Origin: Escherichia coli
GTDB lineage: Bacteria; Pseudomonadota; Gammaproteobacteria; Enterobacterales; Enterobacteriaceae
Direction: 5' to 3' (one strand)
NCBI RefSeq assembly: GCF_024223415.1
Contig: NZ_CP100500.1
DNA length: 64,000 bases
Numbering within the stretch: the stretch's first letter is position 1; each line of letters opens with the position of its first letter. Below are positions 29,029-51,608 of this stretch, piece by piece. A model generated the notes under the pieces. The model was not told the DNA's origin. It made no database searches and worked only from the letters and a program-made list of their open reading frames with translations. A program made the translations under genes and the position numbers.

Positions 29029-29051
29029 TTATTCTCTCCTGGAGTTAAAAA

Positions 29052-33305: not shown

Positions 33306-35207
33306 ATGTCAACCGGATTACGTTTCACACTGGAAGTGGACGGCCTGCCACCGGACGCTTTTGCGGTGGTTTCCTTTCATCTCACCCAGTCACTCTCTTC
33401 GCTCTTTTCCCTCGATCTCTCCCTGGTCAGCCAGCAGTTTCTCTCCCTTGAATTCCAGCAGATCCTCGACAAAATGGCCTACCTGACGATATGGCAGGGC
33501 GATGACGTACAGCGCCGGGTGAAAGGTGTGGTGACCTGGTTTGAACTGGGGGAGAACGACAAAAACCAGATGCTGTACAGCATGAAGGTATGCCCGCCGC
33601 TGTGGCGTGCCGGTCTGCGCCAGAACTTCCGTATCTTCCAGAACGAGGACATCAAAAGCATCCTCGGCACGATATTGCAGGAAAACGGGGTGACCGAGTG
33701 GAGTCCGCTGTTCAGTGAACCGCATCCTTCCCGTGAGTTTTGTGTCCAGTACGGTGAGACTGATTACGATTTCCTGTGCCGGATGGCGGCGGAGGAAGGC
33801 ATCTTCTTTTATGAGGAGCATGCTTACAAAAGTACCGACCAGAGCCTGGTGCTGTGCGACACGGTCCGCCATCTGCCCGAATCTTTTGAAATCCCATGGA
33901 ACCCGAACACCCGTACCGAGGTGAGCACCCTCTGCATCAGCCAGTTTCGCTACAGCGCACAAATCCGCCCTTCTTCCGTGGTGACCAAAGACTACACCTT
34001 TAAACGCCCCGGCTGGGCAGGACGTTTTGATCAGGAAGGCCAGCACCAGGATTACCAGCGCACGCAGTATGAGGTGTATGACTACCCCGGACGTTTCAAG
34101 GGCGCCCACGGGCAGAACTTTGCCCGCTGGCAGATGGAGGGCTGGCGAAACAATGCAGAAACCGCGCGGGGAATGAGTCGCTCGCCGGAGATATGGCCGG
34201 GACGGCGAATTGTGCTGACGGGGCATCCGCAGGCGAACCTGAACCGGGAATGGCAGGTGGTGGCAAGTGAACTGCACGGCGAGCAGCCGCAGGCGGTGCC
34301 GGGAAGGCGGGGAGCAGGGACGGCGCTGGAGAACCATTTTGCGGTGATCCCGGCAGACCGGACATGGCGACCCCAGCCGCGGCTAAAACCGCTGGTGGAC
34401 GGTCCGCAGAGCGCCGTCGTGACGGGGCCGGAGGGTGAGGAAATCTTCTGTGATGAACATGGCCGAGTGCGGGTGAAATTCAACTGGGACCGTTATAACC
34501 CGGCAGACCAGGACAGCTCGTGCTGGATCCGTGTGGCACAGGCGTGGGCAGGCACCGGTTTTGGCAACCTGGCGATACCGCGTGTGGGTCAGGAGGTGAT
34601 AGTGGACTTCCTCAACGGCGATCCGGACCAGCCGATCATTATGGGGCGCACCTACCACCAGGAAAACCGCACCCCCGGCAGCCTGCCGGGGACGAAGACG
34701 CAGATGACCATCCGTTCCAAAACGTATATGGGCAGCGGGTTTAATGAGCTGAAGTTTGACGATGCGACAGGGAAAGAACAGGTCTACATCCACGCGCAGA
34801 AGGACATGGATACCGAGGTACTCAACGATCGTACCACCACCGTAAAACACGATCATCGCGAAACCGTAAAAAATGACCAGACGGTCACGATACAGGAAGG
34901 TAATCGCCTTCTTATGGTGGAAAAAGGCGACAAGATCACAGGAGTACGAAAAGGTTCTTTATCTGAGAATGTCTTTCAGGACAGAGGCACGATTGCCGGT
35001 TCGGTGCATGTTGACGCTGTAGACAATGGTGGCGAAGGCAACGGTATACAGGCTTATACGGCAATTAAGGAAATTATGCTGGCCGTGGAGGAAAGCAAAA
35101 TTGCGCTGACGCCGGATGGCATTCAGCTACAGGTCGGGGAATCAACGGTAATCAGGCTGTCGAAGGATGGCATCACCATCGTGGGCGGCTCTGTTTTTAT
35201 CAACTGA
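33306..35207 (+). CDS. vgrG: type VI secretion spike protein VgrG (gp27/gp5-like, no C-terminal extension)
   Basis: 633-aa ORF with strong RBS GGAGG; canonical VgrG sequence features; preceded by about 600 bp of AT-rich DNA. Confidence 0.9.
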   Translation: MSTGLRFTLEVDGLPPDAFAVVSFHLTQSLSSLFSLDLSLVSQQFLSLEFQQILDKMAYLTIWQGDDVQRRVKGVVTWFELGENDKNQMLYSMKVCPPLWRAGLRQNFRIFQNEDIKSILGTILQENGVTEWSPLFSEPHPSREFCVQYGETDYDFLCRMAAEEGIFFYEEHAYKSTDQSLVLCDTVRHLPESFEIPWNPNTRTEVSTLCISQFRYSAQIRPSSVVTKDYTFKRPGWAGRFDQEGQHQDYQRTQYEVYDYPGRFKGAHGQNFARWQMEGWRNNAETARGMSRSPEIWPGRRIVLTGHPQANLNREWQVVASELHGEQPQAVPGRRGAGTALENHFAVIPADRTWRPQPRLKPLVDGPQSAVVTGPEGEEIFCDEHGRVRVKFNWDRYNPADQDSSCWIRVAQAWAGTGFGNLAIPRVGQEVIVDFLNGDPDQPIIMGRTYHQENRTPGSLPGTKTQMTIRSKTYMGSGFNELKFDDATGKEQVYIHAQKDMDTEVLNDRTTTVKHDHRETVKNDQTVTIQEGNRLLMVEKGDKITGVRKGSLSENVFQDRGTIAGSVHVDAVDNGGEGNGIQAYTAIKEIMLAVEESKIALTPDGIQLQVGESTVIRLSKDGITIVGGSVFIN

Positions 35208-35234
35208 TTCACTCAGATTATCAGGGAGTATTTT

Positions 35235-35696
35235 ATGCAGTTCACTTTTAATGAAGGCCACATTCAACTGCCGTCTCAATGGCAGGATCAGTCAATGCAG
35301 GTCCTGGTGTCCACAGATAACAGTGGCATCAACCTGGTCATTACCCGCGAAGCCGTTCCACAGGGAACCCTGACACCAGAGCTGTACCAGGAAACGCTGG
35401 CGCTGTACCAGGGCAAACTTGATGGGTACACCGCACATGCCTGCCGGGAAATCACTCTGGCAGAGGCCCCGGCCTGGCTGCTGGATTATTCCTGGAACGG
35501 TCCGGAAGATGAAGGGAATCAGGGGCGGATTAGCCAGATAGCCGTATTCCAGCGGCGTGGAGATACGCTGCTGACCTTCACTTTCAGCACCTCCTTATCC
35601 CTGAAGAACAGTCAAAAGACGATGCTGCTGGAGGTGATAAAGAGCTTCACCCCGTTGCCACCGGAGAATGATATCCAAAAGGACCAGCCGCGCTGA
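35235..35696 (+). CDS. DUF1795-family (Eag-like) effector chaperone/adaptor
   Basis: 153-aa ORF directly between vgrG and a prePAAR Rhs gene, the usual position and size for Eag/DUF1795 chaperones; family assignment is by context and sequence recollection. Confidence 0.7.
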   Translation: MQFTFNEGHIQLPSQWQDQSMQVLVSTDNSGINLVITREAVPQGTLTPELYQETLALYQGKLDGYTAHACREITLAEAPAWLLDYSWNGPEDEGNQGRISQIAVFQRRGDTLLTFTFSTSLSLKNSQKTMLLEVIKSFTPLPPENDIQKDQPR

Positions 35697-35715
35697 CATA
35701 AACGAGGGATAACAC

Positions 35716-38700
35716 ATGAGTGAAGGACCAGGCGGGCCACAGGGAGCGACCGCAGGCGGTACGCTGGCAATGCGAATGCTTTCACAGCAGGCGATGGTCG
35801 CCAGCCAGATGAAACGGGCAGCCAACAACAAAGCCATTGCACAGATGTTGGCATCAAAAAAGTCTGGCCCCCCCGCCGCCAGGCTGGGCGATGAAATTCA
35901 GCACAAGAGTTTTTTGGGGGCGCTGGCAGGGGCCGTGCTGGGGGCGATAGTGACCATCGCAGAAGGTTGCCTGATTATGGCCGCCTGTGCCACCGGCCCT
36001 TATGCGCTGGTTCTGGTGCCTGCGCTGATGTATGCCAGCTATAAGGCGAGTGATTATGTGGAGGAGAAACAGAACCAGCTTGAATCATGGATAAACAGCT
36101 TTTGTGACACGGACGGCGCCATCAATACCGGTTCTGAAAACGTAAAAATTAACGGAAAGCCCGCTGCCAGGGCCGCCGTCACCCTTCCCTCTCCTCCCCC
36201 GCCTGAAGCAATACCCGAAGCCTCACAGGGGGAGCATTCATGGGGTGACATGGCCCTTGACCTGCTTGAATCGGCAGCGGAAAAAGCAGCGCCACTGGCT
36301 AAATCCTGGGGGAACGCTGTTATCACCCTGACGGACAGCAATGCCAGTTTTATGGATCGCGTCAGTGCAGGCGCATCGCTTCTGTTTCCCGCCGGTCCGG
36401 TATTAATGGAGTTTGCCACCATGGTGGGCGGGCGTGGCGAAATCAAAAAAGATGTGGATTTCCCGGAAGCCGGTGAGGACACGGCGCTCTGCGACAAGGA
36501 GAACAAACCACCGAGGATAGCCCAGGGCAGCAGCAACGTCTTTATCAACAATCAGCCTGCCGCGCGCAAGGGCGACAAACTGGAGTGCAGCGCGGCAATC
36601 GTGGAAGGTTCGCCGGACGTCTTTATTGGGGGTGAGCAGGTCACCTATCTGGATATCCAGCCGGAGTTCCCGCCATGGCAGAGAATGATCCTGGGAGGAA
36701 TAACGATAGCCAGCTATCTTCTGCCGCCAGCAGGACTGCTGGGAAAACTGGGGAATCTGGCGAAACTGGGCAAACTGGGAAACCTGCTGGGGAAAAGCGG
36801 GAAGCTGCTGGGCGCAAAACTCGGCGCGTTGCTGGGGAAAACAGGTAAGTCGTTAAAAAGTATTGCCAATAAAGTCATCAGATGGGTAACAGATCCTGTC
36901 GATCCGGTAACCGGCGCGTACTGCGACGAACGTACCGACTTCACCCTGGGCCAGACCCTCCCCCTCTCCTTCACCCGTTTCCACAGTTCTGTACTGCCAC
37001 TGCATGGCCTGACGGGCGTGGGCTGGAGCGACTCCTGGAGCGAATACGCCTGGGTGCGTGAACAGGGAAACCGGGTGGATATCATCAGCCTGGGAGCCAC
37101 GCTGAACTTCGCCTTCGACGGTGAAAGTGATACGGCGGTTAACCCGTATCACGCCCAGTACATTCTGCGCCGCTGCGACGATTACCTGGAGCTGTTCGAC
37201 AGGAATGCACTGAGCAGCCGCTTCTTTTATGACGCCTTTCCGGGAATGCGTCTGCGCCACCCGGTGACTGACGATACCAGCGATGACCGCCTGGCACACA
37301 GCCCCGCAGACCGGATGTACATGCTGGGCGGGATGAGCGACACCGCCAGCAACCGCATCACGTTTGAGCGCGACAGCCAGTACCGGATCACGGGTGTCAG
37401 TCACACCGACGGGATCCGGCTTAAACTGACGTACCACGCCAGCGGCTACCTGAAAGCCATTCACCGCACGGATAACGGCATACAGACGCTGGCGACCTAC
37501 GAACAGGATGCGCGGGGGCGGCTGACAGAAGCGGATGCGCGGCTGGACTACCACCTGTTTTATGAGTACGACGCTGCGGACCGGATCATCCGCTGGTCCG
37601 ATAACGACCAGACGTGGAGCCGTTTCACCTACGATGAACAGGGCCGGTGCGTGACCGTCACCGGGGCGGAGGGCTATTACAACGCCACGCTGGACTATGG
37701 TGACGGCTGCACCACCGTGACGGACGGCAAGGGCATTCACCGTTATTACTATGATCCTGACGGCAATATTCTGCGGGAAGAAGCGCCGGACGGCAGCACC
37801 ACCACGTATGAATGGGATGAATTCCATCACCTGCTGGCCCGCCACTCCCCTGCCAGGCGGGTGGAGAAATTTGAATACAACGCCGCACAGGGTCAGTTAA
37901 GCCGTTACACGGCGGCAGACGGCGCGGAGTGGCAGTACTGCTATGATGAGCGCGGCCTGCTCAGCAACATCACCGACCCTGCCGGGCAGACGTGGACGCA
38001 GCAGTGTGATGAACGCGGCCTGCCGGTAAGTCTGGTGTCGCCACAGGGCGAAGAGACCCGGCTGGCGTACACGCCGCAGGGGCTGCTGTCGGGGATATTC
38101 CGCCAGGATGAACGGCGTCTGGGCATAGAGTACGACCACCACAACCGGCCGGAAACACTCACCGACGTGATGGGCCGTGAACACCACACCGAATACAGCG
38201 GTCACGACCTGCCGGTGAAGATGCGCGGCCCCGGCGGTCAGTCAGTGCGGTTGCAGTGGCAGCAGCACCATAAACTGAGCGGCCTTGAGCGGGCAGGAAC
38301 CGGCGCAGAAGGATTCCGCTATGACCGCCACGGCAACCTGCTGGCGTACACGGACGGTAACGGCGTTGTCTGGACAATGGAATACGGCCCGTTCGATTTG
38401 CCGGTGGCGCGAACGGACGGTGAAGGCCACCGCTGGCAGTACCGCTACGATAAAGACACGCTGCAGCTCACAGAAGTCATTAACCCGCAGGGTGAGTCTT
38501 ATCTTTATATTCTGGACAACTGTGGCCGGGTGACGGAAGAACGTGACTGGGGCGGCGTGGTCTGGCGTTACCGTTATGACGCTGATGGCCTGTGTACCGC
38601 CAGGGTCAACGGCCTGGAGGAAACCATCCTCTACGGCCGGGACGCCGCAGGCCGCCTGGCAGAAGTCATCACGCCGGAAGGTAAAACGCAGTATGCGTAT

Positions 38701-40536
38701 GACAAATCCGGCAGGCTGACGGGTATCTTCAGCCCGGACGGCACATCACAGCGCACCGGCTACGACGAACGCGGGCGGGTGAATGTCACCACTCAGGGCC
38801 GACGGGCCATTGAATACCACTACCCCGACGAACATACCGTCATCCGCTGTATCCTGCCACCGGAAGATGAACGCGACAGACACCCCGATGAATCCCTGCT
38901 GAAAACCACGTACCGCTACAACGCAGCCGGAGAACTGACGGAGGTTATCCTGCCGGGGAATGAGACGCTGACGTTCAGCCGTGATGAGGCAGGACGTGAA
39001 GTGTTCCGGCACAGTAACCGGGGTTTTGCCTGTGAGCAGGGCTGGAATGCAGCCGGCCAGCTTACCAGCCAGCGCGCCGGACTTTTCCCGGAGGAAGCCA
39101 CGTGGGGCGGGCTGGTTCCGTCACTGGTGCGGGAGTACCGTTACGACAGCGCGGGTAATGTGTCAGGCGTCACCAGCCGGGAAGATTACGGACGGGAAAC
39201 ACGGCGGGAATACCGGCTGGACCGGAACGGCCAAGTCACGGCGGTGACAGCCTCAGGCACCGGGCTGGGCTATGGCGAAGGCGATGAGTCCTATGGCTAT
39301 GACAGCTGTGGCTACCTGAAGGCGCAGTCTGCGGGCAGGCACCGGATAAGTGAAGAGACTGACCAGTATGCCGGAGGCCACCGGCTGAAACAGGCCGGAA
39401 ACACGCAGTATGACTATGACGCCGCAGGCCGGATGGTCAGCCGGACAAAACACCGTGACGGCTACCGCCCGGAAACAGAGCGGTTCCGGTGGGACAGCCG
39501 GGACCAGCTGACCGGGTATTGCAGCGCACAGGGTGAGCTGTGGGAATACCGCCACGACGCCAGCGGCAGACGAACAGAGAAACGCTGCGACCGGAAGAAA
39601 ATCCGCTTCACGTATCTGTGGGACGGCGACAGTATTGCGGAAATCCGGGAATACCGCGATGATGAACTGTACAGCGTACGGCACCTGGTGTTTAACGGCT
39701 TTGAGCTGATAAGCCAGCAGTTCAGCCGGGTACGGCAGCCGCACCCGTCCGTGGCTCCGCAGTGGGTGACGCGGACGAATCATGCGGTGAGCGACCTGAC
39801 GGGCCGGCCGCTGATGCTCTTTAACAGTGAAGGTAAAACCGTCTGGCAGCCGGGACAGACCAGCCTGTGGGGGCTGGCACTCAGCCTGCCCGCAGACACA
39901 GACTACCCGGACCCGCGCGGGGAACTGGACCCGGAAGCCGACCCCGGCCTGCTGTATGCGGGACAGTGGCAGGATGCGGAATCCGGGCTGTGCTATAACC
40001 GGTTCCGGTATTACGATCCGGAAACCGGAATGTACCTGGTGAGTGATCCGCTGGGGTTGCAGGGAGGGGAGCAGACTTACCGGTATGTGCCTAATCCTTG
40101 TGGGTATGTTGATCCCTCTGGGTTGGCAATGACTTCGAAAATAGTCAATAAACTACCTTCTGCAAAAGATCTTGCTACAAAAAGGGCCAGTGAGTTATTA
40201 GCAAAGGCAACATCTAATACCCAGCGAAGTAAATTACCAAGGGCAGTTTCAGCTGTTGTTGATAAGAGAACTGGCAAAATATATTATGGAGAAAGTGGCT
40301 GGCCTCACCCAACAGAAATACATCCTACATTACAAAATAATATGCCATCAGCCAGTAAGGAGCGATGGGCAATCGAGAACTGTGCGGAATTTAAAGCTGT
40401 AAATGAAGCTTTGAAGGCAAATGCGAAAATTAGTGATCTTGAAGTTCATACAGTATTGGTAAAAACAGGCGAAGCTTTTCCAATGTGTAAGAATTGTCAA
40501 ATTTCAATATTTGGCGCTGTTGTTACAAGCGGGTGA
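35716..40536 (+). CDS. rhs: Rhs polymorphic toxin with N-terminal prePAAR/TM/PAAR region, YD-repeat shell and a variable C-terminal tip resembling a deaminase-fold toxin
   Basis: 1606-aa ORF; prePAAR motif AARLGDEIQH followed by hydrophobic helices; YD repeats; core ends with DPLGL...DPSGLA (about 40045-40119); after that GC content drops and the tip carries C-A-E (40381..40389) and P-M-C-K-N-C (40480..40497) about 34 residues apart, the zinc-ligand pattern of cytidine/adenosine deaminases. Confidence 0.9.
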   Translation: MSEGPGGPQGATAGGTLAMRMLSQQAMVASQMKRAANNKAIAQMLASKKSGPPAARLGDEIQHKSFLGALAGAVLGAIVTIAEGCLIMAACATGPYALVLVPALMYASYKASDYVEEKQNQLESWINSFCDTDGAINTGSENVKINGKPAARAAVTLPSPPPPEAIPEASQGEHSWGDMALDLLESAAEKAAPLAKSWGNAVITLTDSNASFMDRVSAGASLLFPAGPVLMEFATMVGGRGEIKKDVDFPEAGEDTALCDKENKPPRIAQGSSNVFINNQPAARKGDKLECSAAIVEGSPDVFIGGEQVTYLDIQPEFPPWQRMILGGITIASYLLPPAGLLGKLGNLAKLGKLGNLLGKSGKLLGAKLGALLGKTGKSLKSIANKVIRWVTDPVDPVTGAYCDERTDFTLGQTLPLSFTRFHSSVLPLHGLTGVGWSDSWSEYAWVREQGNRVDIISLGATLNFAFDGESDTAVNPYHAQYILRRCDDYLELFDRNALSSRFFYDAFPGMRLRHPVTDDTSDDRLAHSPADRMYMLGGMSDTASNRITFERDSQYRITGVSHTDGIRLKLTYHASGYLKAIHRTDNGIQTLATYEQDARGRLTEADARLDYHLFYEYDAADRIIRWSDNDQTWSRFTYDEQGRCVTVTGAEGYYNATLDYGDGCTTVTDGKGIHRYYYDPDGNILREEAPDGSTTTYEWDEFHHLLARHSPARRVEKFEYNAAQGQLSRYTAADGAEWQYCYDERGLLSNITDPAGQTWTQQCDERGLPVSLVSPQGEETRLAYTPQGLLSGIFRQDERRLGIEYDHHNRPETLTDVMGREHHTEYSGHDLPVKMRGPGGQSVRLQWQQHHKLSGLERAGTGAEGFRYDRHGNLLAYTDGNGVVWTMEYGPFDLPVARTDGEGHRWQYRYDKDTLQLTEVINPQGESYLYILDNCGRVTEERDWGGVVWRYRYDADGLCTARVNGLEETILYGRDAAGRLAEVITPEGKTQYAYDKSGRLTGIFSPDGTSQRTGYDERGRVNVTTQGRRAIEYHYPDEHTVIRCILPPEDERDRHPDESLLKTTYRYNAAGELTEVILPGNETLTFSRDEAGREVFRHSNRGFACEQGWNAAGQLTSQRAGLFPEEATWGGLVPSLVREYRYDSAGNVSGVTSREDYGRETRREYRLDRNGQVTAVTASGTGLGYGEGDESYGYDSCGYLKAQSAGRHRISEETDQYAGGHRLKQAGNTQYDYDAAGRMVSRTKHRDGYRPETERFRWDSRDQLTGYCSAQGELWEYRHDASGRRTEKRCDRKKIRFTYLWDGDSIAEIREYRDDELYSVRHLVFNGFELISQQFSRVRQPHPSVAPQWVTRTNHAVSDLTGRPLMLFNSEGKTVWQPGQTSLWGLALSLPADTDYPDPRGELDPEADPGLLYAGQWQDAESGLCYNRFRYYDPETGMYLVSDPLGLQGGEQTYRYVPNPCGYVDPSGLAMTSKIVNKLPSAKDLATKRASELLAKATSNTQRSKLPRAVSAVVDKRTGKIYYGESGWPHPTEIHPTLQNNMPSASKERWAIENCAEFKAVNEALKANAKISDLEVHTVLVKTGEAFPMCKNCQISIFGAVVTSG

Positions 40537-40540
40537 TTAT

Positions 40541-40978
40541 ATGTGTGAATTAATTAATGAAGCATCAAAATATGGGAAAGTCAATGTAAGAAAGATGGAC
40601 ATTGATTTGTGTTGTAAAAAAATAGAGGAAGAAGGGTATTCTGTTTTCGTTGCGTTCTATGATTTTATAAAAAAATATGGCGGTTTATATGGCTTTCATT
40701 CAGCTTACAAAGACACCACTATAAGTGAGGCTTTTTTTATAGATCCAGAAAGGGCCTCTAATCGCATTTTTATAGAAAGAGTCAATGATTATATTGAGAG
40801 AGCTGGTTACAATATGATTCCTGTTGGCGAGTGCAGTAATGGTCATATCACATTATTATATGGGGAAAATAATGTGATATATGGCGGCTTGGATGATTAT
40901 CTTTGGAAGTATGGGGATAATTTATCTTCATCAATTGATATATTGATTAATGGTAAGGAGGCAGTTGAAATTCCGTAA
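40541..40978 (+). CDS. putative cognate immunity protein for the Rhs tip
   Basis: AT-rich ORF starting 5 bp after the rhs stop (ATG at 40541; an upstream TTG at 40511 would overlap rhs); position and composition typical of Rhs immunity genes; family unknown. Confidence 0.6.
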   Translation: MCELINEASKYGKVNVRKMDIDLCCKKIEEEGYSVFVAFYDFIKKYGGLYGFHSAYKDTTISEAFFIDPERASNRIFIERVNDYIERAGYNMIPVGECSNGHITLLYGENNVIYGGLDDYLWKYGDNLSSSIDILINGKEAVEIP

Positions 40979-40984
40979 GGCCAA

Positions 40985-42909
40985 CTGCCAGGGCCAACGG
41001 CCTGGAGGAAACCATCCTCAACAGCCGGGACGCCGCAGGCCGCCTGGCAGAAGTCATCTCGCCGGAAGGCAAAACGCAGTATGCGTATGACAAATCCGGC
41101 AGGCTGACGGGTATCTTCAGCCCGGACGGTACATCACAGCGCACCGGCTATGATGAACGCGGGCGGGTGAATGTCACCACTCAGGGCCGACGGGCCATTG
41201 AATACCACTACCCCGATGAACACACCGTCATCCGCTGTATCCTGCCACCGGAAGATGAACGCGACAGACACCCCGATGAATCCCTGCTGAAAACCACATA
41301 CCGCTACAACACCGCCGGAGAACTGACGGAGGTCATTCTGCCGGGGGATGAGACGCTGACGTTCAGCCGTGATGAGGCGGGACGTGAAGTGTTCCGGCAC
41401 AGTAACCGGGGTTTTGCCTGTGAGCAGGGCTGGAATGCAGCCAGCCAGCTTGTCACCCAGCGCGCCGGATTTTTCCCGGAGGAAACCACATGGGGCGGGC
41501 TGCTCCCCTCACTGGTACGGGAGTACCGTTACGACAGCGCGGGCAATGTGTCGGCTGTCACCAGCCGGGAAGATTACGGACGGGAAACACGGCGGGAATA
41601 CCGGCTGGACCGGAACGGCCATGTCACGGCGGTGACAGCCTCAGGCACCGGGCTGGGCTATGGCGAAGGCGATGAGTCCTATGGCTATGACAGCTGCGGC
41701 TACCTGAAGGCGCAGTCTGCGGGCAGGCACCGGATAAGTGAAGAGACTGACCAGTATGCCGGAGGCCACCGGCTGAAACAGGCCGGAAACACGCAGTATG
41801 ACTATGACGCCGCAGGCCGGATGGTCAGCCGGACAAAACACCGTGACGGCTACCGCCCGGAAACAGAGCGGTTCCGGTGGGACAGCCGGGACCAGCTGAC
41901 CGGGTATTGCAGCGCACAGGGTGAGCAGTGGGAATACCGCCACGACGCCAGCGGCAGACGGACGGAAAAACGCTGTGACCGGAAGAAAATCCGTTTTACG
42001 TACCTGTGGGACGGCGACAGTATTGCGGAAATCCGGGAATACCGCGATGATGAACTGTACAGCGTACGGCACCAGGTGTTTAACGGCTTTGAGCTGATAA
42101 GCCAGCAGTTCAGCCGGGTACGGCAGCCGCACCCGTCCGTGGCCCCGCAGTGGGTGACGCGGACGAATCACGCGGTGAGCGACCCGACGGGCCGCCCGCT
42201 GATGCTCTTTAACAGTGAAGGCAAGACGGTCTGGCGGCCGGGGCAGACCAGCCTGTGGGGGCTGGCACTCAGCCTGCCCGCAGACACCGACGACCCGGAC
42301 CCGCGCGGGGAACTGGACGCGGAAGCCGACCCCGGCCTGCTGTATGCAGGACAGTGGCGGGATGGGGAATCCGGGCTGTGCTATAACCGGTTCAGGTACT
42401 ACGAGCCGGAAACCGGAATGTACCTGGTGAGTGATCCACTGGGGTTGCTGGGGGGTGAGCAGACTTACCGGTATGTGCCTAATCCACTGGGTTGGATTGA
42501 CCAGTATGGACTTGCTGGTTGCCCCAGAGCTCTGGCAAGGGCAATGAAACGGGCTAACAGAAACCTAGCTAAGAGTGCCGGATACATGAATCGAGCTTGG
42601 TATAAATTCAAAGGTTCTGCCGCCCATCATATTGTTGCTTGGGATGACCCCCGTGCTTTAGGCGCAAGAAAAATTCTGGAAAAATATGGTATACACATTG
42701 ATTCCGCAGAAAATGGAATATTTTTGAAACATGTAGATCCAAACTCTCTTCAGCCAGGATCTTATCATCGTGTTATTCATACGAACAAATATTATGCTGA
42801 TGTTGAGGCACGACTCGCAGACGCAGCTAAGGCTAATGGGAAACAAGGTGTTCTTGATGAGTTAGATGCTATCAGGGATGACCTGCTTTTTAATAGACTA
42901 ATTTATTAA
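40985..42909 (+). pseudogene. orphan rhs fragment (about 1.5 kb of core plus a distinct tip of the AHH nuclease family), no N-terminal region
   Basis: Nucleotides about 40988-42500 are near-identical to the main rhs at about 38599-40115; after its own DPLGL motif the tip differs and contains GSAAHHIVAWDD (AHH at 42622..42630), then ENGIFL and SYHRVIH, matching the HNH-like AHH family; longest internal ORF is 41167..42909. Confidence 0.7.
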
Positions 42910-42922
42910 TAAGGGCATAGTA

Positions 42923-43456
42923 ATGAATGTTTATTTAATTCGGCATGATGTGGACAACTTCAAGTTTTACTTGCAAGACGAGAGTGACTTTCTTTCAGTT
43001 GCTGCTTTTGATTTTTGTGGAGAGTCTCTATTTAATGGATGGAAACCATACAAAATAGAGCTATTTAAAGGAAAAACTAAAGCTGAGAAATCATTAAACG
43101 GGGATTTTAATTCATCATGTTTTAGTCCAGGATTATTATACGTCGAACATTCTCTCGCAGATGTATTATCTCGTCAGGCAAATGATATTGAGTTATTAAA
43201 AGTAATCACCAGTGATGATCGTGATTTTTATTATGCAAACGTGGTAGGGAAAATACCAGCCTTACATTATAACAACAGACAAGAGCTACAAATTATGAGT
43301 AGAACACAAGAATATAAATTCAATAACTCCATAAATGAAATGTTAATATTTCGTGATAAAACATTACCTTCAAACTATTTTGTTACAGATCGTTTTGTGG
43401 ATATTTTTCAGAATGATTTTCGTGGGGTAATTTTTAAAAAAGTTGGTGAGATATAA
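42923..43456 (+). CDS. putative immunity protein for the orphan AHH-nuclease tip
   Basis: 177-aa AT-rich ORF immediately downstream of the orphan tip; family unknown. Confidence 0.6.
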   Translation: MNVYLIRHDVDNFKFYLQDESDFLSVAAFDFCGESLFNGWKPYKIELFKGKTKAEKSLNGDFNSSCFSPGLLYVEHSLADVLSRQANDIELLKVITSDDRDFYYANVVGKIPALHYNNRQELQIMSRTQEYKFNNSINEMLIFRDKTLPSNYFVTDRFVDIFQNDFRGVIFKKVGEI

Positions 43457-43482
43457 CTTAATGCATTGAACATCTAACCCGT

Positions 43483-44015
43483 ACCGCTATGACCGCCACG
43501 GTAACCTGCTGGCGTACACGGACGGTAACGGCGTTGTCTGGACGATGGAATACGGCCCGTTCGATTTGCCGGTCGCGCGAACGGACGGTGAAGGCCACCG
43601 CTGGTGGTACCGCTACGATAAAGACACGCTGCAACTGACAGAAGTCATCAACCCGCAGGGTGAGTCATATCTTTATGTTCTGGATAACTGTGGCCGGGTG
43701 ACGGAAGAGCGTGACTGGGGCGGCGTGGTCTGGCGTTACCGCTATGACGCCGATGGCCTCTGTACCGCCAGGGTCAACGGACTGGAGGAAACCATCCTCT
43801 ACAGCCGGGACGCTGCAGGGCGCCTGGCAGAAGTCATCACGCCGGAAGGGAAAACGCAGTATGCGTATGACAAATCCGGCAGGCTGACGGGTATCTTCAG
43901 CCCGGACGGCATATCACAGCGCACCGGCTATGACGAACGCGGGCGGGTGAATGTCACCACTCAGGGCCGACGGGCAGGGAAAGATCATCAGAAGTTCACT
44001 TTTTGTACTAAATAA
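43483..44015 (+). pseudogene. second rhs core fragment (about 0.5 kb) truncated at the H-repeat insertion
   Basis: Near-identical to the main rhs at about 38316-38808; ORF 43545..44015 ends in a short unrelated tail (GKDHQKFTFCTK) where the H-repeat element begins. Confidence 0.65.
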
Positions 44016-45300
44016 TTCGCATTTTATGTTTAAAAATTGAGATATTCCTCATTATCCGAAGCTGTTTTTTATTGCTTATACATGATCAAATACTCCTTAC
44101 ATAATTAAGGAGAACAAAATGGAACTTAAAAAATTGATGGAACATATTTCTATTATCCCCGATTACAGACAAGCCTGGAAAGTGGAACATAAATTATCAG
44201 ATATTCTACTGTGGACTATTTGTGCCGTTATTTCTGGTGCAGAAGGTTGGGAAGATATAGAGGATTTTGGGGAAACACATCTCGATTTTTTGAAGCAATA
44301 TGGTGATTTTGAAAATGGTATTCCTGTTCACGATACCATTGCCAGAGTTGTATCCTGTATCAGTCCTGCAAAATTTCACGAGTGCTTTATTAACTGGATG
44401 CGTGACTGCCATTCTTCAGATGATAAAGACGTCATTGCAATTGATGGAATAACGCTCCGGCACTCTTATGATAAGAGTCGTCGCAGGGGAGCGATTCATG
44501 TCATTAGTGCGTTCTCAACAATGCACAGTCTGGTCCTCGGACAGATCAGGACGGATGAGAAATCTAATGAGATTACAGCTATTCCTGAACTTCTTAACAT
44601 GATGGATATTAAAGGAAAAATCATCACAACTGATGCGATGGGTTGCCAGAAAGATATTGCAGAAAAGATACAAAAACAGGGAGGGGATTATTTATTCGCT
44701 GTAAAGGGAAATCAGGGGCGACTAAATAAAGCCTTTGAGGAAAAATTCCCGCTGAAAGAATTAAATAATCCAGAGCATGACAGTTACGCAATCAGTGAAA
44801 AGAGTCACGGCAGAGAAGAAATCCGTCTTCATATTGTTTACGATGTCCCTGATGAACTTATTGATTTCACGTTTGAATGGAAAGGGCTGAAGAAATTATG
44901 CGTGGCAGTCTCCTTTCGGTCCATAATAGCAGAACAAAAGAAAGAGCCAAAAATGACGGTCAGATATTATATCAGTTCTGCTGATTTAACCGCAGAGAAG
45001 TTCGCCACAGCAATCCGAAACCACTGGCACGTGGAGAATAAGCTGCACTGGCGTCTGGACGTGGTAATGAATGAAGACGACTGCAAAATAAGAAGAGGAA
45101 ATGCAGCAGAATTATTTTCAGGGATACGGCACATTGCTATTAATATTTTGACGAATGATAAGGTATTCAAGGCAGGGTTAAGACGTAAGATGCGAAAAGC
45201 AGCCATGGACAGAAACTATCTGGCGTCAGTCCTTGCGGGGAGCGGGCTTTCGTAATCTTGCCCTGCCTGCTCACCTCCAGGCACTTCCACTACATCATGA
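44016..45300 (+). mobile_element. H-repeat (H-rpt) insertion element, boundaries approximate
   Basis: Encloses the H-rpt transposase ORF; left edge set where rhs homology stops (about 43976-44016); right edge not defined by recognisable terminal repeats. Confidence 0.45.
44119..45255 (+). CDS. H-repeat-associated protein (ISAs1-family transposase, YhhI/YdcC-like)
   Basis: 378-aa ORF closely resembling the H-rpt proteins found next to K-12 Rhs elements; sits at the distal end of the Rhs island. Confidence 0.85.
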
Positions 45301-45520
45301 CCTGATCGGTGCCACCACTCCTCTTCACTATGACGTTAACCTCCCCTCCTTGACACCACGCTTTTGTCTACATTCTACGCAAACGGCAACTTTTATAACC
45401 AGTGTAAAAATAACGTGCCGCAATAGTCATACCTATTAATGGTAAAAAGCTGTCACAATTCATAAAAAACCTTAATATACGCCACCCTAAACATAACCAG
45501 CGTTAATGTAAGGTTTTTGT

Positions 45521-47758
45521 GTGGACTGGCTTCTTGATGTTTTTGCTACCTGGCTCTACGGCTTAAAAGTAATCGCGATAACGTTAGCGGTCATCATGTT
45601 CATCAGCGGGCTGGACGATTTTTTTATTGATGTCGTCTACTGGGTACGCCGCATTAAACGCAAGTTGAGTGTTTATCGCCGCTACCCGCGAATGAGTTAC
45701 CGCGAACTGTATAAACCAGATGAAAAACCGTTAGCGATTATGGTTCCGGCGTGGAATGAAACGGGCGTCATCGGCAATATGGCCGAGCTGGCGGCGACCA
45801 CGCTCGACTACGAAAACTATCATATCTTTGTTGGCACCTACCCCAACGACCCGGACACTCAGCGTGATGTTGACGAAGTGTGCGCTCGCTTCCCGAATGT
45901 GCATAAGGTAGTCTGCGCGCGTCCTGGCCCCACCAGCAAAGCCGACTGTCTGAACAACGTGCTGGACGCCATCACCCAGTTTGAGCGTAGCGCCAATTTC
46001 GCATTTGCTGGTTTTATTCTGCATGACGCCGAAGATGTGATTTCACCGATGGAGTTGCGTCTGTTCAACTATCTGGTCGAGCGTAAAGATCTGATTCAGA
46101 TCCCGGTATACCCATTCGAACGCGAATGGACGCACTTCACCAGCATGACTTACATTGATGAGTTTTCAGAACTGCATGGCAAAGATGTTCCGGTGCGTGA
46201 AGCCCTCGCCGGACAAGTACCCAGCGCAGGCGTCGGCACCTGTTTCAGCCGCCGCGCCGTGACCGCTCTGTTAGCTGATGGTGACGGTATTGCTTTCGAC
46301 GTGCAAAGTCTTACTGAAGATTACGACATTGGCTTCCGCCTGAAAGAAAAAGGTATGACGGAAATTTTTGTCCGTTTTCCGGTGGTGGATGAAGCCAAAG
46401 AACGCGAGCAGCGTAAATTTTTACAGCACGCACGGACGTCAAACATGATCTGCGTGCGCGAATATTTCCCCGATACCTTTTCGACTGCGGTTCGACAAAA
46501 ATCCCGCTGGATCATCGGCATTGTTTTCCAGGGCTTTAAAACCCATAAATGGACCTCCAGCCTGACGCTGAACTACTTTCTCTGGCGCGACCGCAAAGGG
46601 GCAATCAGTAACTTTGTCAGCTTCCTCGCGATGCTGGTGATGATCCAGCTTTTGCTGTTGCTGGCGTATGAAAGTTTGTGGCCCGATGCCTGGCATTTCC
46701 TTTCTATTTTTAGCGGCAGCGCATGGTTAATGACCCTGCTGTGGCTAAACTTTGGCTTGATGGTTAACCGCATCGTGCAGCGGGTGATTTTCGTCACTGG
46801 CTACTACGGCCTCACGCAGGGGCTACTATCTGTCCTGCGTCTTTTCTGGGGCAACCTGATTAACTTCATGGCCAACTGGCGCGCGTTAAAACAGGTACTT
46901 CAACACGGCGATCCACGTCGCGTCGCGTGGGATAAAACAACGCATGACTTCCCCAGCGTCACTGGCGATACCCGCTCGTTGCGCCCGTTAGGTCAAATTC
47001 TGCTGGAAAATCAGGTCATCACTGAAGAACAGCTCGATACAGCACTGCGTAATCGCGTCGAAGGTCTACGCCTGGGCGGTTCAATGCTGATGCAGGGGCT
47101 GATTAGCGCCGAGCAGCTGGCACAGGCGCTGGCAGAGCAAAACGGCGTGGCGTGGGAATCCATCGATGCCTGGCAGATCCCGTCCTCGCTGATTGCCGAA
47201 ATGCCGGCCTCCGTGGCGCTGCATTATGCGGTACTGCCGCTGCGTCTGGAAAATGATGAGTTAATTGTCGGCAGTGAAGATGGTATTGACCCGGTTTCGC
47301 TGGCGGCCCTGACGCGTAAAGTCGGACGCAAAGTGCGTTACGTCATTGTTCTGCGGGGACAAATTGTCACGGGGTTACGTCACTGGTATGCACGCCGACG
47401 CGGTCACGATCCGCGGGCAATGTTGTACAATGCGGTTCAGCATCAGTGGCTCACGGAACAGCAGGCCGGTGAAATCTGGCGGCAATATGTGCCGCATCAG
47501 TTCCTGTTCGCCGAAATACTGACCACGCTCGGTCATATTAATCGTTCAGCAATTAACGTGTTGTTATTGCGCCATGAACGCAGTTCTCTGCCGCTCGGCA
47601 AGTTTTTGGTCACCGAAGGCGTTATCAGCCAGGAAACGTTGGATCGCGTCCTGACAATTCAACGCGAATTACAAGTTTCGATGCAATCACTATTACTCAA
47701 AGCAGGTTTAAACACAGAACAGGTTGCGCAACTGGAGTCCGAAAATGAAGGAGAATAA
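45521..47758 (+). CDS. nfrB: bacteriophage N4 adsorption protein B (inner-membrane glycosyltransferase-like) NfrB
   Basis: 745-aa ORF with GTG start; N-terminal TM and glycosyltransferase family 2-like region; followed by nfrA. Confidence 0.88.
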   Translation: MDWLLDVFATWLYGLKVIAITLAVIMFISGLDDFFIDVVYWVRRIKRKLSVYRRYPRMSYRELYKPDEKPLAIMVPAWNETGVIGNMAELAATTLDYENYHIFVGTYPNDPDTQRDVDEVCARFPNVHKVVCARPGPTSKADCLNNVLDAITQFERSANFAFAGFILHDAEDVISPMELRLFNYLVERKDLIQIPVYPFEREWTHFTSMTYIDEFSELHGKDVPVREALAGQVPSAGVGTCFSRRAVTALLADGDGIAFDVQSLTEDYDIGFRLKEKGMTEIFVRFPVVDEAKEREQRKFLQHARTSNMICVREYFPDTFSTAVRQKSRWIIGIVFQGFKTHKWTSSLTLNYFLWRDRKGAISNFVSFLAMLVMIQLLLLLAYESLWPDAWHFLSIFSGSAWLMTLLWLNFGLMVNRIVQRVIFVTGYYGLTQGLLSVLRLFWGNLINFMANWRALKQVLQHGDPRRVAWDKTTHDFPSVTGDTRSLRPLGQILLENQVITEEQLDTALRNRVEGLRLGGSMLMQGLISAEQLAQALAEQNGVAWESIDAWQIPSSLIAEMPASVALHYAVLPLRLENDELIVGSEDGIDPVSLAALTRKVGRKVRYVIVLRGQIVTGLRHWYARRRGHDPRAMLYNAVQHQWLTEQQAGEIWRQYVPHQFLFAEILTTLGHINRSAINVLLLRHERSSLPLGKFLVTEGVISQETLDRVLTIQRELQVSMQSLLLKAGLNTEQVAQLESENEGE

Positions 47759-50717
47759 CCTTAATCGCGTCATCGGATGGTCTGGTTTACTGCTGACGTC
47801 TTTATTGAGTACCAGCGCACTCGCAGACAATATCGGCACCAGCGCAGAAGAGCTGGGGCTGAGCGATTATCGCCATTTTGTTATTTATCCCCGTCTCGAT
47901 AAGGCGCTGAAGGCACAGAAAAATAACGACGAAGCAACCGCCATCCGCGAATTTGAATATATACACCAGCAGGTGCCGGATAATATTCCGCTGACTTTAT
48001 ACCTTGCGGAAGCCTATCGCCATTTTGGTCATGATGACCGGGCGCGGCTGTTGCTTGAGGATCAACTGAAACGTCACCCAGGAGATGCCCGACTTGAGCG
48101 CAGTCTGGCGGCTATTCCAGTTGAAGTGAAAAGCGTTACGACAGTTGAAGAACTGCTTGCCCAGCAAAAAGCGTGCGATGCTGCGCCGACCCTGCGTTGT
48201 CGCAGTGAAGTCGGGCAGAATGCCCTGCGGCTGGCACAGTTACCTGTCGCCAGAGCGCAACTGAACGATGCGACGTTTGCTGCATCGCCGGAAGGAAAAA
48301 CGCTGCGAACCGATCTGCTGCAACGGGCAATCTACCTGAAACAATGGTCCCAGGCAGATACGCTATACAATGAAGCACGCCAGCAGAACACATTAAGCGC
48401 GGCAGAACGCCGTCAGTGGTTTGACGTGCTTCTTGCCGGGCAGCTGGACGATCGGATCCTGGCGCTGCAATCACAGGGGATCTTCACTGATCCTCAGTCA
48501 TATATTACTTACGCGACCGCGCTGGCTTATCGTGGCGAAAAAGCACGCCTCCAGCATTATCTCATTGAAAATAAGCCGCTGTTTACCACGGACGCACAAG
48601 AGAAAAGTTGGCTCTATCTGTTATCTAAATACAGCGCCAACCCCGTTCAGGCATTGGCGAATTATACGGTGCAGTTTGCCGATAACCGCCAGTATGTTGT
48701 TGGCGCGACGCTACCGGTGCTGTTAAAAGAAGGTCAGTACGACGCAGCGCAAAAACTGCTCGCCACCCTCCCCGCCAATGAAATGCTTGAGGAGCGTTAT
48801 GCTGTCAGCGTGGCGACCCGTAACAAGGCTGAAGCTCTGCGTCTGGCACGCTTGCTGTATCAGCAAGAACCGGCAAATCTTACCCGCCTGGATCAACTGA
48901 CCTGGCAACTGATGCAGAACGAGCAGTCACGCGAAGCTGCCGATTTATTGCTGCAACGCTATCCTTTCCAGGGCGATGCGCGTGTCAGCCAGACTTTAAT
49001 GGCGCGACTGGCGTCTCTTCTGGAAAGTCATCCTTACCTGGCAACTCCAGCGAAGGTGGCGATTTTATCGAAACCCTTACCGCTGGCGGAGCAACGTCAG
49101 TGGCAAAGTCAGTTGCCGGGTATTGCAGATAATTGCCCGGCAATAGTTCGCTTGCTGGGCGATATGTCGCCTTCCTACGATGCTGCCGCCTGGAACCGTC
49201 TGGCAAAGTGTTATCGGGATACGCTACCCGGTGTGGCGTTGTATGCATGGCTTCAGGCCGAACAACGACAACCGAACGCCTGGCAACATCGTGCGGTAGC
49301 CTATCAGGCGTATCAGGTTGAGGACTACGCCACCGCACTGGCGGCCTGGCAGAAAATCAGTCTTCACGACATGAGCAATGAGGATCTGCTTGCTGCTGCC
49401 AATACCGCCCAGGCGGCAGGAAATGGTGCGGCTCGCGATCGCTGGTTACAACAGGCAGAACAACGTGGACTGGGAAACAATGCCCTCTACTGGTGGCTGC
49501 ATGCGCAACGTTACATTCCTGGTCAGCCGGAACTCGCACTGAACGATCTCACGCGCTCAATCAATATTGCGCCTTCTGCCAACGCTTACGTTGCGCGGGC
49601 GACAATTTATCGCCAACGTCATAATGTCCCGGCCGCGGTGAGTGATTTGCGCGCCGCGCTGGAACTGGAACCGAATAATAGCAACACCCAGGCAGCGCTT
49701 GGTTACGCCTTGTGGGATAGCGGTGATATCGCACAGTCGCGGGAAATGCTCGAACAGGCGCATAAAGGGCTACCGGACGATCCGGCACTGATCCGACAAC
49801 TGGCCTATGTGAACCAGCGTCTGGATGACATGCCTGCGACGCAGCACTACGCCCGGCTGGTGATTGATGACATTGATAATCAGGCGCTGATAACCCCACT
49901 CACCCCAGAGCAAAATCAGCAACGCTTCAATTTCCGCCGTCTGCATGAGGAGGTCGGTCGCCGCTGGACGTTCAGTTTCGATTCTTCCATCGGCTTGCGT
50001 TCCGGCGCAATGAGTACCGCTAACAATAATGTCGGCGGCGCAGCGCCAGGGAAAAGCTATCGTAGCTACGGACAACTGGAAGCCGAGTACCGCATCGGAC
50101 GCAATATGCTGCTGGAAGGCGACCTGCTCTCAGTCTATAGCCGCGTCTTTGCCGATACCGGAGAAAACGGGGTGATGATGCCGGTGAAAAATCCGATGTC
50201 CGGCACCGGTCTGCGCTGGAAGCCGCTGCGCGATCAGATCTTTTTCCTCGCCGTCGAACAGCAGTTGCCGCTGAACGGGCAAAATGGCGCATCCGATACA
50301 ATGCTGCGCGCCAGCGCCTCATTCTTTAATGGCGGCAAATACAGCGACGAATGGCACCCGAACGGTTCAGGCTGGTTTGCCCAAAACCTGTACCTCGATG
50401 CGGCGCAATATATCCGCCAGGATATTCAGGCGTGGACGGCAGATTATCGCGTCAGCTGGCATCAGAAGGTAGCTAACGGACAGACTATTGAGCCTTACGC
50501 TCACGTTCAGGACAACGGCTATCGTGATAAAGGCACTCAGGGCGCGCAGCTTGGCGGTGTCGGGGTCCGCTGGAATATTTGGACCGGCGAGACGCACTAC
50601 GACGCCTGGCCGCACAAAGTCAGTCTCGGCGTCGAGTATCAACATACCTTTAAGGCGATTAATCAACGTAACGGAGAGCGCAACAACGCGTTTCTCACCA
50701 TTGGAGTGCACTGGTAA
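47745..50717 (+). CDS. nfrA: bacteriophage N4 adsorption outer-membrane protein NfrA
   Basis: Start at MKENNLNRVIGWSGLLLTSLLSTSALA (signal peptide); TPR-rich; overlaps the nfrB end. Confidence 0.88.
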   Translation: MKENNLNRVIGWSGLLLTSLLSTSALADNIGTSAEELGLSDYRHFVIYPRLDKALKAQKNNDEATAIREFEYIHQQVPDNIPLTLYLAEAYRHFGHDDRARLLLEDQLKRHPGDARLERSLAAIPVEVKSVTTVEELLAQQKACDAAPTLRCRSEVGQNALRLAQLPVARAQLNDATFAASPEGKTLRTDLLQRAIYLKQWSQADTLYNEARQQNTLSAAERRQWFDVLLAGQLDDRILALQSQGIFTDPQSYITYATALAYRGEKARLQHYLIENKPLFTTDAQEKSWLYLLSKYSANPVQALANYTVQFADNRQYVVGATLPVLLKEGQYDAAQKLLATLPANEMLEERYAVSVATRNKAEALRLARLLYQQEPANLTRLDQLTWQLMQNEQSREAADLLLQRYPFQGDARVSQTLMARLASLLESHPYLATPAKVAILSKPLPLAEQRQWQSQLPGIADNCPAIVRLLGDMSPSYDAAAWNRLAKCYRDTLPGVALYAWLQAEQRQPNAWQHRAVAYQAYQVEDYATALAAWQKISLHDMSNEDLLAAANTAQAAGNGAARDRWLQQAEQRGLGNNALYWWLHAQRYIPGQPELALNDLTRSINIAPSANAYVARATIYRQRHNVPAAVSDLRAALELEPNNSNTQAALGYALWDSGDIAQSREMLEQAHKGLPDDPALIRQLAYVNQRLDDMPATQHYARLVIDDIDNQALITPLTPEQNQQRFNFRRLHEEVGRRWTFSFDSSIGLRSGAMSTANNNVGGAAPGKSYRSYGQLEAEYRIGRNMLLEGDLLSVYSRVFADTGENGVMMPVKNPMSGTGLRWKPLRDQIFFLAVEQQLPLNGQNGASDTMLRASASFFNGGKYSDEWHPNGSGWFAQNLYLDAAQYIRQDIQAWTADYRVSWHQKVANGQTIEPYAHVQDNGYRDKGTQGAQLGGVGVRWNIWTGETHYDAWPHKVSLGVEYQHTFKAINQRNGERNNAFLTIGVHW

Positions 50718-51608
50718 ATGCGTAAGTTCATTTTCGTATTGCTGACACTGCTTTTGGTCAGCCCTTTTTCCTTTGCGATGAAAGGTATTATCTGGCAACC
50801 ACAAAACCGAGATAGTCAGGTTACCGATACCCAGTGGCAGGGGCTGATGAGTCAGTTACGTTTGCAAGGCTTCGATACCCTGGTTTTGCAATGGACCCGT
50901 TACGGCGATGCATTTACCCAGCCAGAACAGCGCACGTTATTGTTTAAGCGGGCCGCAGCTGCGCAACAGGCTGGTCTGAAGCTGATTGTCGGGCTGAACG
51001 CCGATCCGGAATTTTTTATGCACCAGAAACAGTCGTCCGCAGCGCTGGAAAGCTATCTTAATCGCCTGCTGGCTGCCGATCTCCAGCAAGCCAGATTATG
51101 GAGCGCCGTACCTGGCGTAACGCCGGATGGCTGGTACATCAGCGCGGAAATTGACGACCTGAACTGGCGCAGCGAAGCCGCCCGTCAGCCTTTGCTAACA
51201 TGGTTAAACAACGCGCAGCGGCTGATTAGCGATGTTTCAGCAAAACCGGTTTATATCAGTAGTTTTTTCGCCGGAAACATGTCGCCAGATGGCTATCGCC
51301 AACTGCTGGAACACGTTAAAGCAACCGGCGTTAATGTCTGGGTACAGGATGGCAGCGGCGTGGATAAACTTACCGCTGAACAGCGTGAACGTTATCTACA
51401 GGCCAGCGCCGATTGCCAAAGCTCCGCCCCAGCAAGCGGCATTGTTTATGAACTGTTTGTCGCCGGCAAAGGCAAAACCTTTACAGCGAAACCGAAACCG
51501 GACGCAGAAATTGCCTCGCTGTTAGCGAAACGTTCCTCTTGCGGTAAAGACACTCTCTATTTCTCTCTGCGCTATTTGCCCGTCGCGCACGGCATTCTCG
51601 AGTATTAA
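50718..51608 (+). CDS. ybcH: YbcH (DUF4434 family)
   Basis: 296-aa ORF with signal peptide, immediately after nfrA. Confidence 0.82.
   Translation: MRKFIFVLLTLLLVSPFSFAMKGIIWQPQNRDSQVTDTQWQGLMSQLRLQGFDTLVLQWTRYGDAFTQPEQRTLLFKRAAAAQQAGLKLIVGLNADPEFFMHQKQSSAALESYLNRLLAADLQQARLWSAVPGVTPDGWYISAEIDDLNWRSEAARQPLLTWLNNAQRLISDVSAKPVYISSFFAGNMSPDGYRQLLEHVKATGVNVWVQDGSGVDKLTAEQRERYLQASADCQSSAPASGIVYELFVAGKGKTFTAKPKPDAEIASLLAKRSSCGKDTLYFSLRYLPVAHGILEY

Follow-up and report, generated by a model that had tools for sequence, protein, structure and literature searches.

In Escherichia coli, the closest described relative of the H-repeat (H-rpt) considered here is H-rptB, or ISEc1 (yhhI), of the K-12 RhsB element, which has paralogues in ydcC (RhsE region) and ybfD (RhsC). 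The founders of the ISAs1 family, ISAs1 of Aeromonas salmonicida and IS1358 of the Vibrio cholerae O139 rfb region, are likewise single-ORF DDE elements of 1.2–1.3 kb. As described in ISfinder, the family has CAGGG-type ends and makes 8–10-bp duplications; IS1358 reportedly makes 10-bp duplications. A limited literature search found neither a published duplication length for ISEc1/H-rpt nor a published family end sequence, the matches to "ISEc1" being to other ISEc elements or to unrelated terms. The insertion site is also known: the island between cusS and nfrB was described as Rhs "Locus 4" by Jackson et al. 2009 (PMC2935791), and in E. coli W this site holds rhsW3 (PMC3032704). According to the genome paper for that strain, no transposition of H-rpt has been observed (PMC3032704).

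We analyzed a 64-kb stretch of E. coli DNA (64,000 nucleotides of contig NZ_CP100500.1, hereafter the window), which is chromosome around the cus operon and nfrBA. Alignment to an empty-site genome (L003), in which nfrB comes 149 bp after cusS, places the whole Rhs island at 32688–45378 (+ strand): the empty-site genome aligns only to 26714–32687 and 45379–51520 of the window. The island contains vgrG, a gene for a DcrB/Eag-like chaperone, PAAR-rhs, immunity genes, orphan modules and an H-rpt. The main rhs (35716–40536) has a YwqJ-like deaminase tip at its end, and a SUKH-3 immunity gene comes next. In the orphan-1 module (40984–42909) the tip is an AHH nuclease, and downstream of it comes a 177-aa ORF (42923–43456, + strand, from the ORF list), presumed to be the immunity gene for that tip; a Pfam search with the 177-aa ORF gave no match. 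This ORF is the last intact gene ahead of a truncated rhs fragment, and it also precedes an untruncated orphan in two other genomes, E203449 (L008) and VG35A2 (L009). To the right of the H-rpt there is a 113-bp island-specific spacer (45266–45378, + strand), which separates the element from the core genome, and beyond the island the first core gene is nfrB (45521–47758, + strand).

A genome search found the segment 43900–45520 at 100% identity in strain NCTC10444, where the annotated order is cusS, vgrG, DcrB-related protein, RHS, hypothetical protein, Rhs fragment, ISAs1 family transposase and nfrB. Apart from chance 7–8-mers, no repeats were found in common between the left end of the island and the 113-bp flank on its right, and an Rfam scan of 32000–46000 gave no match. 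Within 43900–45600, both promoter-like sites (5, with 4.0 expected by chance) and terminator-like sites (2, with 1.5 expected) were at chance level; no outward promoter directed toward nfrB is claimed.

The H-rpt of the window occupies 43975–45265 (+ strand; 1,291 bp). Its ends were fixed from junction alignments of 12 copies in 10 distinct flank contexts; across these copies identity starts at CAGGGAAAGATC and stops at GTAATCTTGCCCTG, with unrelated sequence flanking either end. In the yhhI-, ydcC- and nfrB-locus copies the matching segment is exactly positions 1–1291 of the element, at 96–98% identity, and the sequences diverge beyond each end. Over all 1,291 bp the window copy is 97.6% identical to the K-12-type yhhI copy and 97.5% identical to the ydcC copy, both of which RefSeq labels "ISAs1-like element ISEc1 family transposase". 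In window coordinates the yhhI (RhsB) and ydcC copies match from 43975, or from 1–12 bases earlier via chance extension, to 45265. The C at 43975 is common to rhs and the IS, which makes the junction ambiguous by 1 bp. The terminal inverted repeats are CAGGGAAAGATCA at 43975–43987 and TAATCTTGCCCTG at 45253–45265 (both + strand); CAGGGAAAGATCA and the reverse complement of the right repeat, CAGGGCAAGATTA, agree at 11 of 13 positions, and the pair was also recovered by an independent repeat search. A preliminary description of this DNA, made from the letters, had placed an H-rpt within 43960–45300 and proposed that alignment with other copies would define its ends and any target-site duplication. 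That interval contains the true element, and the alignment gave sharp ends, common to copies at unrelated loci, at 43975 and 45265, with no target-site duplication.

Between these ends lies an intact gene for an ISAs1-family DDE transposase (44119–45255, + strand, 378 aa), the H-rpt transposase-like ORF of the preliminary description; an identical ORF is RefSeq WP_071337660.1, "ISAs1 family transposase". Membership of the family, which had been left to an HMM comparison, was borne out by a match to NCBIfam NF033564 ("ISAs1 family transposase") that scored 407.5 bits (cutoff 70; E = 3.5e-122) and spanned 314 of 314 profile positions. The Pfam domains DDE_Tnp_1_assoc (PF13808, 114 bits, 2.7e-33) and DDE_Tnp_1 (PF01609, 103 bits, 2.8e-29) both scored above their gathering scores. 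The family HMM, the domain architecture, the layout (about 1.2–1.5 kb with one ORF and CAGGG-type inverted repeats) and the near-identity to ISEc1 all agree with the ISAs1 family. By sequence, then, 43975–45265 is a complete H-repeat (ISEc1-like, ISAs1 family) insertion sequence. It stands alone in the 64-kb window, where no second H-rpt copy or fragment was found; H-rpt copies occur in nearly all of 5,426 complete E. coli genomes, the median genome having them at 6 places.

In the first comparison set the window copy has 19 private substitutions (10 synonymous, 7 non-synonymous and 2 non-coding), a pattern that is compatible with past purifying selection. The seven amino-acid changes are L32W, K111I, I140L, K144R, L162M, C241Y and E278K. 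The transposase ORF is full length and without stops, and inspection by eye shows the motifs AIDG, TTDAM and HVENK. Because K111I adjoins the first presumed catalytic Asp, the activity of the window-copy transposase is uncertain.

To the left of the element, the distal rhs core fragment (43484–43975, + strand) consists of 492 bp from a third module (orphan-2), which breaks off within the conserved YD-repeat core. By self-BLAST it is 95.5% identical to main rhs 38316–38807, and its segment 43764–43975 matches orphan-1 at 40984–41195; the fragment also matches Pfam RHS_repeat and the TIGR01643 YD repeat. The preliminary description put the end of rhs homology at about 43975; the self-BLAST match ends at that position, and base-by-base alignment shows divergence directly after the C there, so that the fragment stops exactly at the H-rpt left terminus. 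A chimeric 156-aa ORF (43545–44015, + strand) crosses the junction. Its rhs codons (...TTQGRRA) run to the Ala codon at 43974–43976 and are followed by 12 codons from the IS left end (43977–44012), read as GKDHQKFTFCTK, and then by a stop; these are the 12 unrelated codons that had been noticed earlier. An Rhs orphan module extends from core through the PxxxxDPxGL boundary to a variable tip and has an immunity gene, but this fragment ends within the core, and a tip with downstream ORFs is found only in relatives (L008 9533–12032). The fragment is accordingly classed, on its sequence, as the remnant of an rhs orphan module rather than a functional one.

No target-site duplication flanks the window copy (left flank ggccgacggg, right flank cctgctcacc), and self-BLAST found no rhs homology to the right of it. 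An unrearranged IS insertion has a direct repeat and a continuous target, and the window copy has neither. Because there is no target-site duplication and rhs is not resumed on the other side, the window H-rpt is not a simple insertion. Suppose that it had nonetheless inserted into an already short rhs fragment with nothing deleted, the right-hand sequence being the original continuation of the target. Entry of H-rpt into rhs cores does happen, VG35A2 being an example, but such an origin is scarcely credible here: the two flanks share no 8–10-bp duplication, the right flank lacks rhs homology, the identical right flank lies beside H-rpt in about 2,460 genomes having unrelated left flanks, and in relatives the fragment extends 1.3 kb past the junction. 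No 8–11-bp duplication was found at the yhhI, ydcC, ISEc5, O157-type, L002-type, L007-type or L016 copies either; among the copies examined, VG35A2 is the sole exception.

A survey of complete E. coli genomes showed how constant the right-hand junction is. The arrangement H-rpt, 113 bp, nfrB occurs in about 2,460 of the 5,426 genomes, and the 113-bp flank (45266–45378) is present in 2,460, essentially those with H-rpt beside nfrB. In about 2,540 other matching genomes the match begins at 45379, that is, at the empty site. As the right flank occurs in the H-rpt-carrying genomes while in the others the match begins at 45379, the H-rpt is a conserved marker of the island's distal end.

The left-hand junctions, in contrast to the fixed right-hand one, fall into at least six classes, all of which end on the same IS nucleotide at the CAGGG terminus. 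The window type, in which H-rpt abuts rhs core, is rare: four of the 5,426 genomes have it (NCTC10444, NCTC9112, KV7 and SCU-316). A junction lying 54 bp past an immunity-like ORF (L002/L008/L009 type) was found in 527 genomes, one in which the main rhs itself is truncated (L007 type) in 378, and the O157 type in up to 1,135. In the L015 type the rhs core of a different orphan module is joined to the element 8 bp upstream of the window junction position, and in the L012 type a 119-bp left-end fragment of H-rpt lies directly against the full copy. The L015 array also has a left-end remnant, of 81 bp. Since such remnants persist in the L012 and L015 arrays, several H-rpt copies were once co-resident in the cusS-nfrB island.

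What the rhs fragment looks like when whole can be seen in E203449 (L008) and VG35A2 (L009). In both, the 177-aa ORF and the rhs fragment recur, the latter untruncated: for a further 1.3 kb it remains 96% identical to the main rhs, crosses the DPxGL boundary and ends in a short tip, after which come two small ORFs, a spacer of about 820 bp and then H-rpt, with its right junction unchanged. Alignment of the window to L008 covers 8951–10026 and 12853–14583, and the missing segment, L008 10027–12852, is 2,826 bp. L008 is about 3% diverged from the window, and none of the reference genomes is its direct ancestor. The fragment's abrupt end inside conserved core marks the window state as derived; the L002-type junction, too, derives from longer arrays such as that of DETEC-S792 (L012). 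Very probably, then, the window lineage lost about 2.8 kb between core position 43975 and the H-rpt left terminus. With similar confidence, this DNA would have included the remainder of the core, the toxin tip at the C terminus, the spacer of about 820 bp and two small ORFs that are presumed to be immunity genes; a Pfam search with the two small ORFs gave no assignment. Through this deletion the lineage would have lost one toxin/immunity specificity. The loss of about 2.8 kb accounts for the way in which the rhs fragment abuts the CAGGG end without a duplication. Of the earlier proposal that the H-rpt truncates the distal rhs fragment, one part stands, as the fragment does stop at the IS left terminus; the simple insertion point that it implied does not, given the missing duplication, the failure of rhs to resume and the 2,826-bp deletion relative to relatives.

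A deletion of this kind might owe nothing to the IS, arising by illegitimate (microhomology) recombination and ending at the IS boundary by chance, or the junction might be an artefact of assembly. We regard either as very improbable. The single base (C) common to both sides of the junction is what microhomology would offer, but a 1-bp overlap is no more than is expected by chance, and at least five other junction classes stop at the same IS nucleotide, unlike random endpoints. An assembly artefact is excluded because four independent assemblies (NCTC10444, NCTC9112, KV7 and SCU-316) have the identical junction. Both simple insertion and IS-independent deletion are effectively excluded.

Evidence that H-rpt moves comes from VG35A2. 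The island of this strain holds two direct H-rpt copies, one of them inside the main rhs in the same orientation. The inserted copy is flanked by a perfect 10-bp duplication (gatacg, then tcggttaacc, the IS, tcggttaacc again, and cgtatcac), rhs is otherwise continuous, and the uninterrupted window sequence at the site is gatacggcggttaacccgtatcac. This copy is 97.8% identical to the window copy, and the 10-bp duplication belongs to the VG35A2 copy, not to that of the window. We take the duplication to be a bona fide footprint of transposition, from which it follows that the element does transpose.

For the window junction we lean, modestly, toward a second H-rpt insertion followed by recombination with the resident copy, which is the likeliest of the routes considered. 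In the first step a second, diverged H-rpt would have entered the core of the orphan rhs by transposition, oriented like the resident copy, with an expected 10-bp duplication of GGCCGACGGG. In the second step the two direct copies would have undergone homologous recombination, with the crossover in the last approximately 300 bp, removing all DNA between the copies, including the right-hand copy of the duplication. This order of events, and the place of the crossover, we infer. The route is favored because of the VG35A2 intermediate, the left-end remnants in other arrays, the mosaic appearance of the window copy and the divergence gradient at the nfrB locus. VG35A2 is, by analogy, an existing example of the proposed first step, a two-copy intermediate.

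The window copy differs from the resident L002 and L007 copies at 36 and 46 sites, respectively, within positions 1–976 (3.7% and 4.7%), and at 1 within 977–1291. Its 14–19 private substitutions all lie at or before position 976 (P about 0.02 under uniformity). These distributions are suggestive of a mosaic copy. Informative-site triplet tests for a mosaic were weak (p = 0.0015–0.29, uncorrected), with part of the signal coming from yhhI/ydcC-specific alleles. Among nfrB-locus copies (n = 8), mean pairwise divergence declines from left to right: 7.3% (positions 1–150), 3.6%, 3.6%, 2.9% and 1.6% (1001–1291). The nfrB core flank is 1.2–1.7% diverged, which matches the 1.6% of the H-rpt right end, and copies at other loci (n = 4) show no divergence gradient. 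Both the mosaic and the gradient signals come from 12 sampled copies, with breakpoints picked after the data had been viewed. Gene conversion among H-rpt copies could give the same pattern without a second insertion.

These patterns also bear on a one-ended, transposase-mediated adjacent deletion, in which the left end of the resident H-rpt would have attacked the upstream orphan rhs core intramolecularly, removing the 2.8 kb and keeping a single IS copy without target duplication. Such an event would explain well why the endpoint matches the IS left terminus to the base and why at least six independent left junctions do likewise while the right junction is fixed; moreover, the transposase ORF is intact and the H-rpt family transposes. 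It predicts, though, that the whole IS should be that of the resident lineage, whereas the window copy is 3.7–4.7% diverged over positions 1–976 and near-identical in the last 315 bp, and the left-to-right gradient among nfrB-locus copies likewise tells against it. DDE_Tnp_1 (IS4-like) transposases mostly act by cut-and-paste, and single-IS adjacent deletions are uncommon for such enzymes, a generality about the group that is not specific to ISAs1. Of the two IS-dependent routes to an end-precise junction that lacks a duplication, we judge adjacent deletion the less likely.

Insertion followed by recombination predicts an intermediate in which the H-rpt right end is followed by GGCCGACGGG and continuing rhs. 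No single-piece match to this arrangement was found in the 5,426 genomes. Hits with an apparent 9-bp extension (H209–H219) were set aside, as the H-rpt there is unrelated, lies between two different rhs fragments and lacks a duplication.

The window feature is an ordinary textbook H-repeat in a known Rhs locus, and its existing RefSeq annotation is correct. The refinements made here are the exact ends, the absent duplication, the 2.8-kb deletion relative to relatives and the rarity of the junction. In addition, a natural insertion with a 10-bp duplication was seen, against the stated non-observation of H-rpt transposition in the available text of PMC3032704, and the H-rpt beside nfrB emerges as a fixed point up to which orphan toxin/immunity modules have been deleted time and again. 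There is suggestive evidence for pruning of the orphan array by recombination among H-rpt copies, with transposition into rhs as its starting point. We put forward tentatively, as something that may well prove too broad, that natural E. coli populations harbor active H-rpt/ISEc1 and that this element is chiefly responsible for pruning and reshuffling orphan toxin/immunity arrays at Rhs loci: new copies would enter rhs cores with a 10-bp duplication and recombine with the distally anchored resident copy, giving the nested, end-precise deletions of about 2,000 genomes and controlling which immunities a lineage keeps. Were the pruning role general, it would be relevant to the way immunity to one another's Rhs toxins is acquired and lost among E. 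coli lineages.

Among known systems, the likeness of ISAs1 and IS1358 to the window element is one of family-level protein similarity, by HMM, with different hosts and contexts; the 10-bp duplication of VG35A2 fits the 8–10-bp duplications described for the ISAs1 family. The deletions resemble the IS1, IS26 and IS903 paradigms of direct-copy recombination and IS-adjacent deletion in that one IS end is kept precisely while adjacent DNA is lost, no target duplication is present and endpoints are nested among strains, the case for ISEc1 being drawn from comparative sequence. With Rhs Locus 4 (PMC2935791) and rhsW3 (PMC3032704), in the available portions of those papers, the island shares the nfrB-cusS site and the order of a full rhs followed by orphan modules of partial core plus tip; the same portions cover tips and displacement and do not describe H-rpt as a fixed distal boundary or nested deletions. 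The closest parallel is the yhhI H-rptB. Like it, the window copy is 1,291 bp long (97.6% nucleotide identity), has CAGGG termini and a 378-aa transposase, lies downstream of an rhs gene in the same orientation with no flanking duplication, and truncates its neighbor with its left end, the neighbor in RhsB being a HEAT-repeat pseudogene. Unlike it, the window copy is at cusS-nfrB rather than nikR-yhhJ, carries 14–19 private substitutions with 7 amino-acid changes, and abuts an rhs core fragment instead of an immunity-like gene.

Direct evidence that the H-repeat (H-rpt) transposes naturally comes from E. coli VG35A2 (NZ_CP128590.1). In this strain the main PAAR-rhs gene is interrupted by an H-rpt (positions 9675-10965 of the extracted locus, L011), and a perfect 10-bp target duplication (tcggttaacc) flanks the element within the gene. 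The resident nfrB-proximal H-rpt is retained in VG35A2, 15 kb downstream of the rhs-inserted copy and in the same orientation. Just inside the left inverted repeat, at H-rpt positions 14-25 (window 43988-43999), two forms were found among the copies. The window, yhhI and ydcC copies have CAGAAGTTCAC; the O157-type copies, the copy of extracted locus L007 and the H-rpt fragment of DETEC-S792 (locus L012) have (G/C)TAACGCCG(G/C)T. The two forms differ at about 10 of 12 bp, in elements that are elsewhere 96-98% identical.

The junctions at the nfrB locus also vary. In DETEC-S792, a 119-bp left-end piece of H-rpt (L012 8035-8153) lies directly against a complete H-rpt. The complete element has a right flank (L012 9445 onward) that begins 68 bp further in, at the equivalent of window 45334, so the right junction is not quite the same in all copies; the shorter right flank is also found in PEC1021 (locus L015). 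In PEC1021 the junction between rhs core and H-rpt (L015 7067/7068) lies just 8 bp upstream of the point where the window has its junction, and it sits in a different orphan module, one preceded by a DUF4304 gene. The rhs core may have a site near ACTCAGGGCCGACGGG at which joining is preferred; alternatively, the 8-bp spacing may be due to a secondary 8-bp deletion. PEC1021 has another H-rpt left-end remnant, of 81 bp (L015 5034-5114), which comes after a segment of the main rhs.

The toxin/immunity array of the window spans 35716-43456. The main Rhs has a YwqJ-like deaminase tip, and the SUKH-3 immunity protein that goes with it is encoded at 40541-40978. Orphan-1, the partial rhs core and tip module at 40984-42909, has an AHH nuclease tip, after which comes a 177-aa ORF. 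No Pfam family was found for the 177-aa ORF, nor for two small ORFs that are deleted in the window relative to E203449 (locus L008). When NCTC10444 (L001 9084-10586) was compared with window 38596-42485, 2,388 bp proved to be absent from NCTC10444, and around the H-rpt the two are identical. In NCTC10444, recombination joined the main rhs to orphan-1; as a result the deaminase tip has given way to the AHH nuclease tip, with loss of the SUKH-3 immunity gene. The recombined gene is annotated as frameshifted. These two near-identical strains illustrate orphan-tip displacement.

At the other end of the island, the left boundary (window 32688-32712, at the cusS 3' end) falls about 19 bp before the point at which cusS ends in genomes with an empty site. 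Because the boundary is inside the gene, the CusS C-terminus of island-bearing strains is different and two residues longer, the cusS CDS being 1,449 bp versus 1,443 bp in empty-site genomes. Downstream of the H-rpt, the adjacent gene carries the symbol 'nrfB' in many RefSeq records (L001, L002, L007, L010, L013 and others). Its product is the N4-adsorption glycosyltransferase NfrB, and the label is a mix-up with the name of a nitrite-reductase gene.

In the K-12-type RhsB locus, a HEAT-repeat (YibA-like) pseudogene (L004 2659-3009) is truncated by the left end of the yhhI H-rpt, and no duplication accompanies the element. This pattern, left-end truncation of a neighbour without duplication, is the same as that of the H-rpt at the nfrB locus, and the likeness suggests that H-rpts in general are associated with end-precise loss of upstream DNA.
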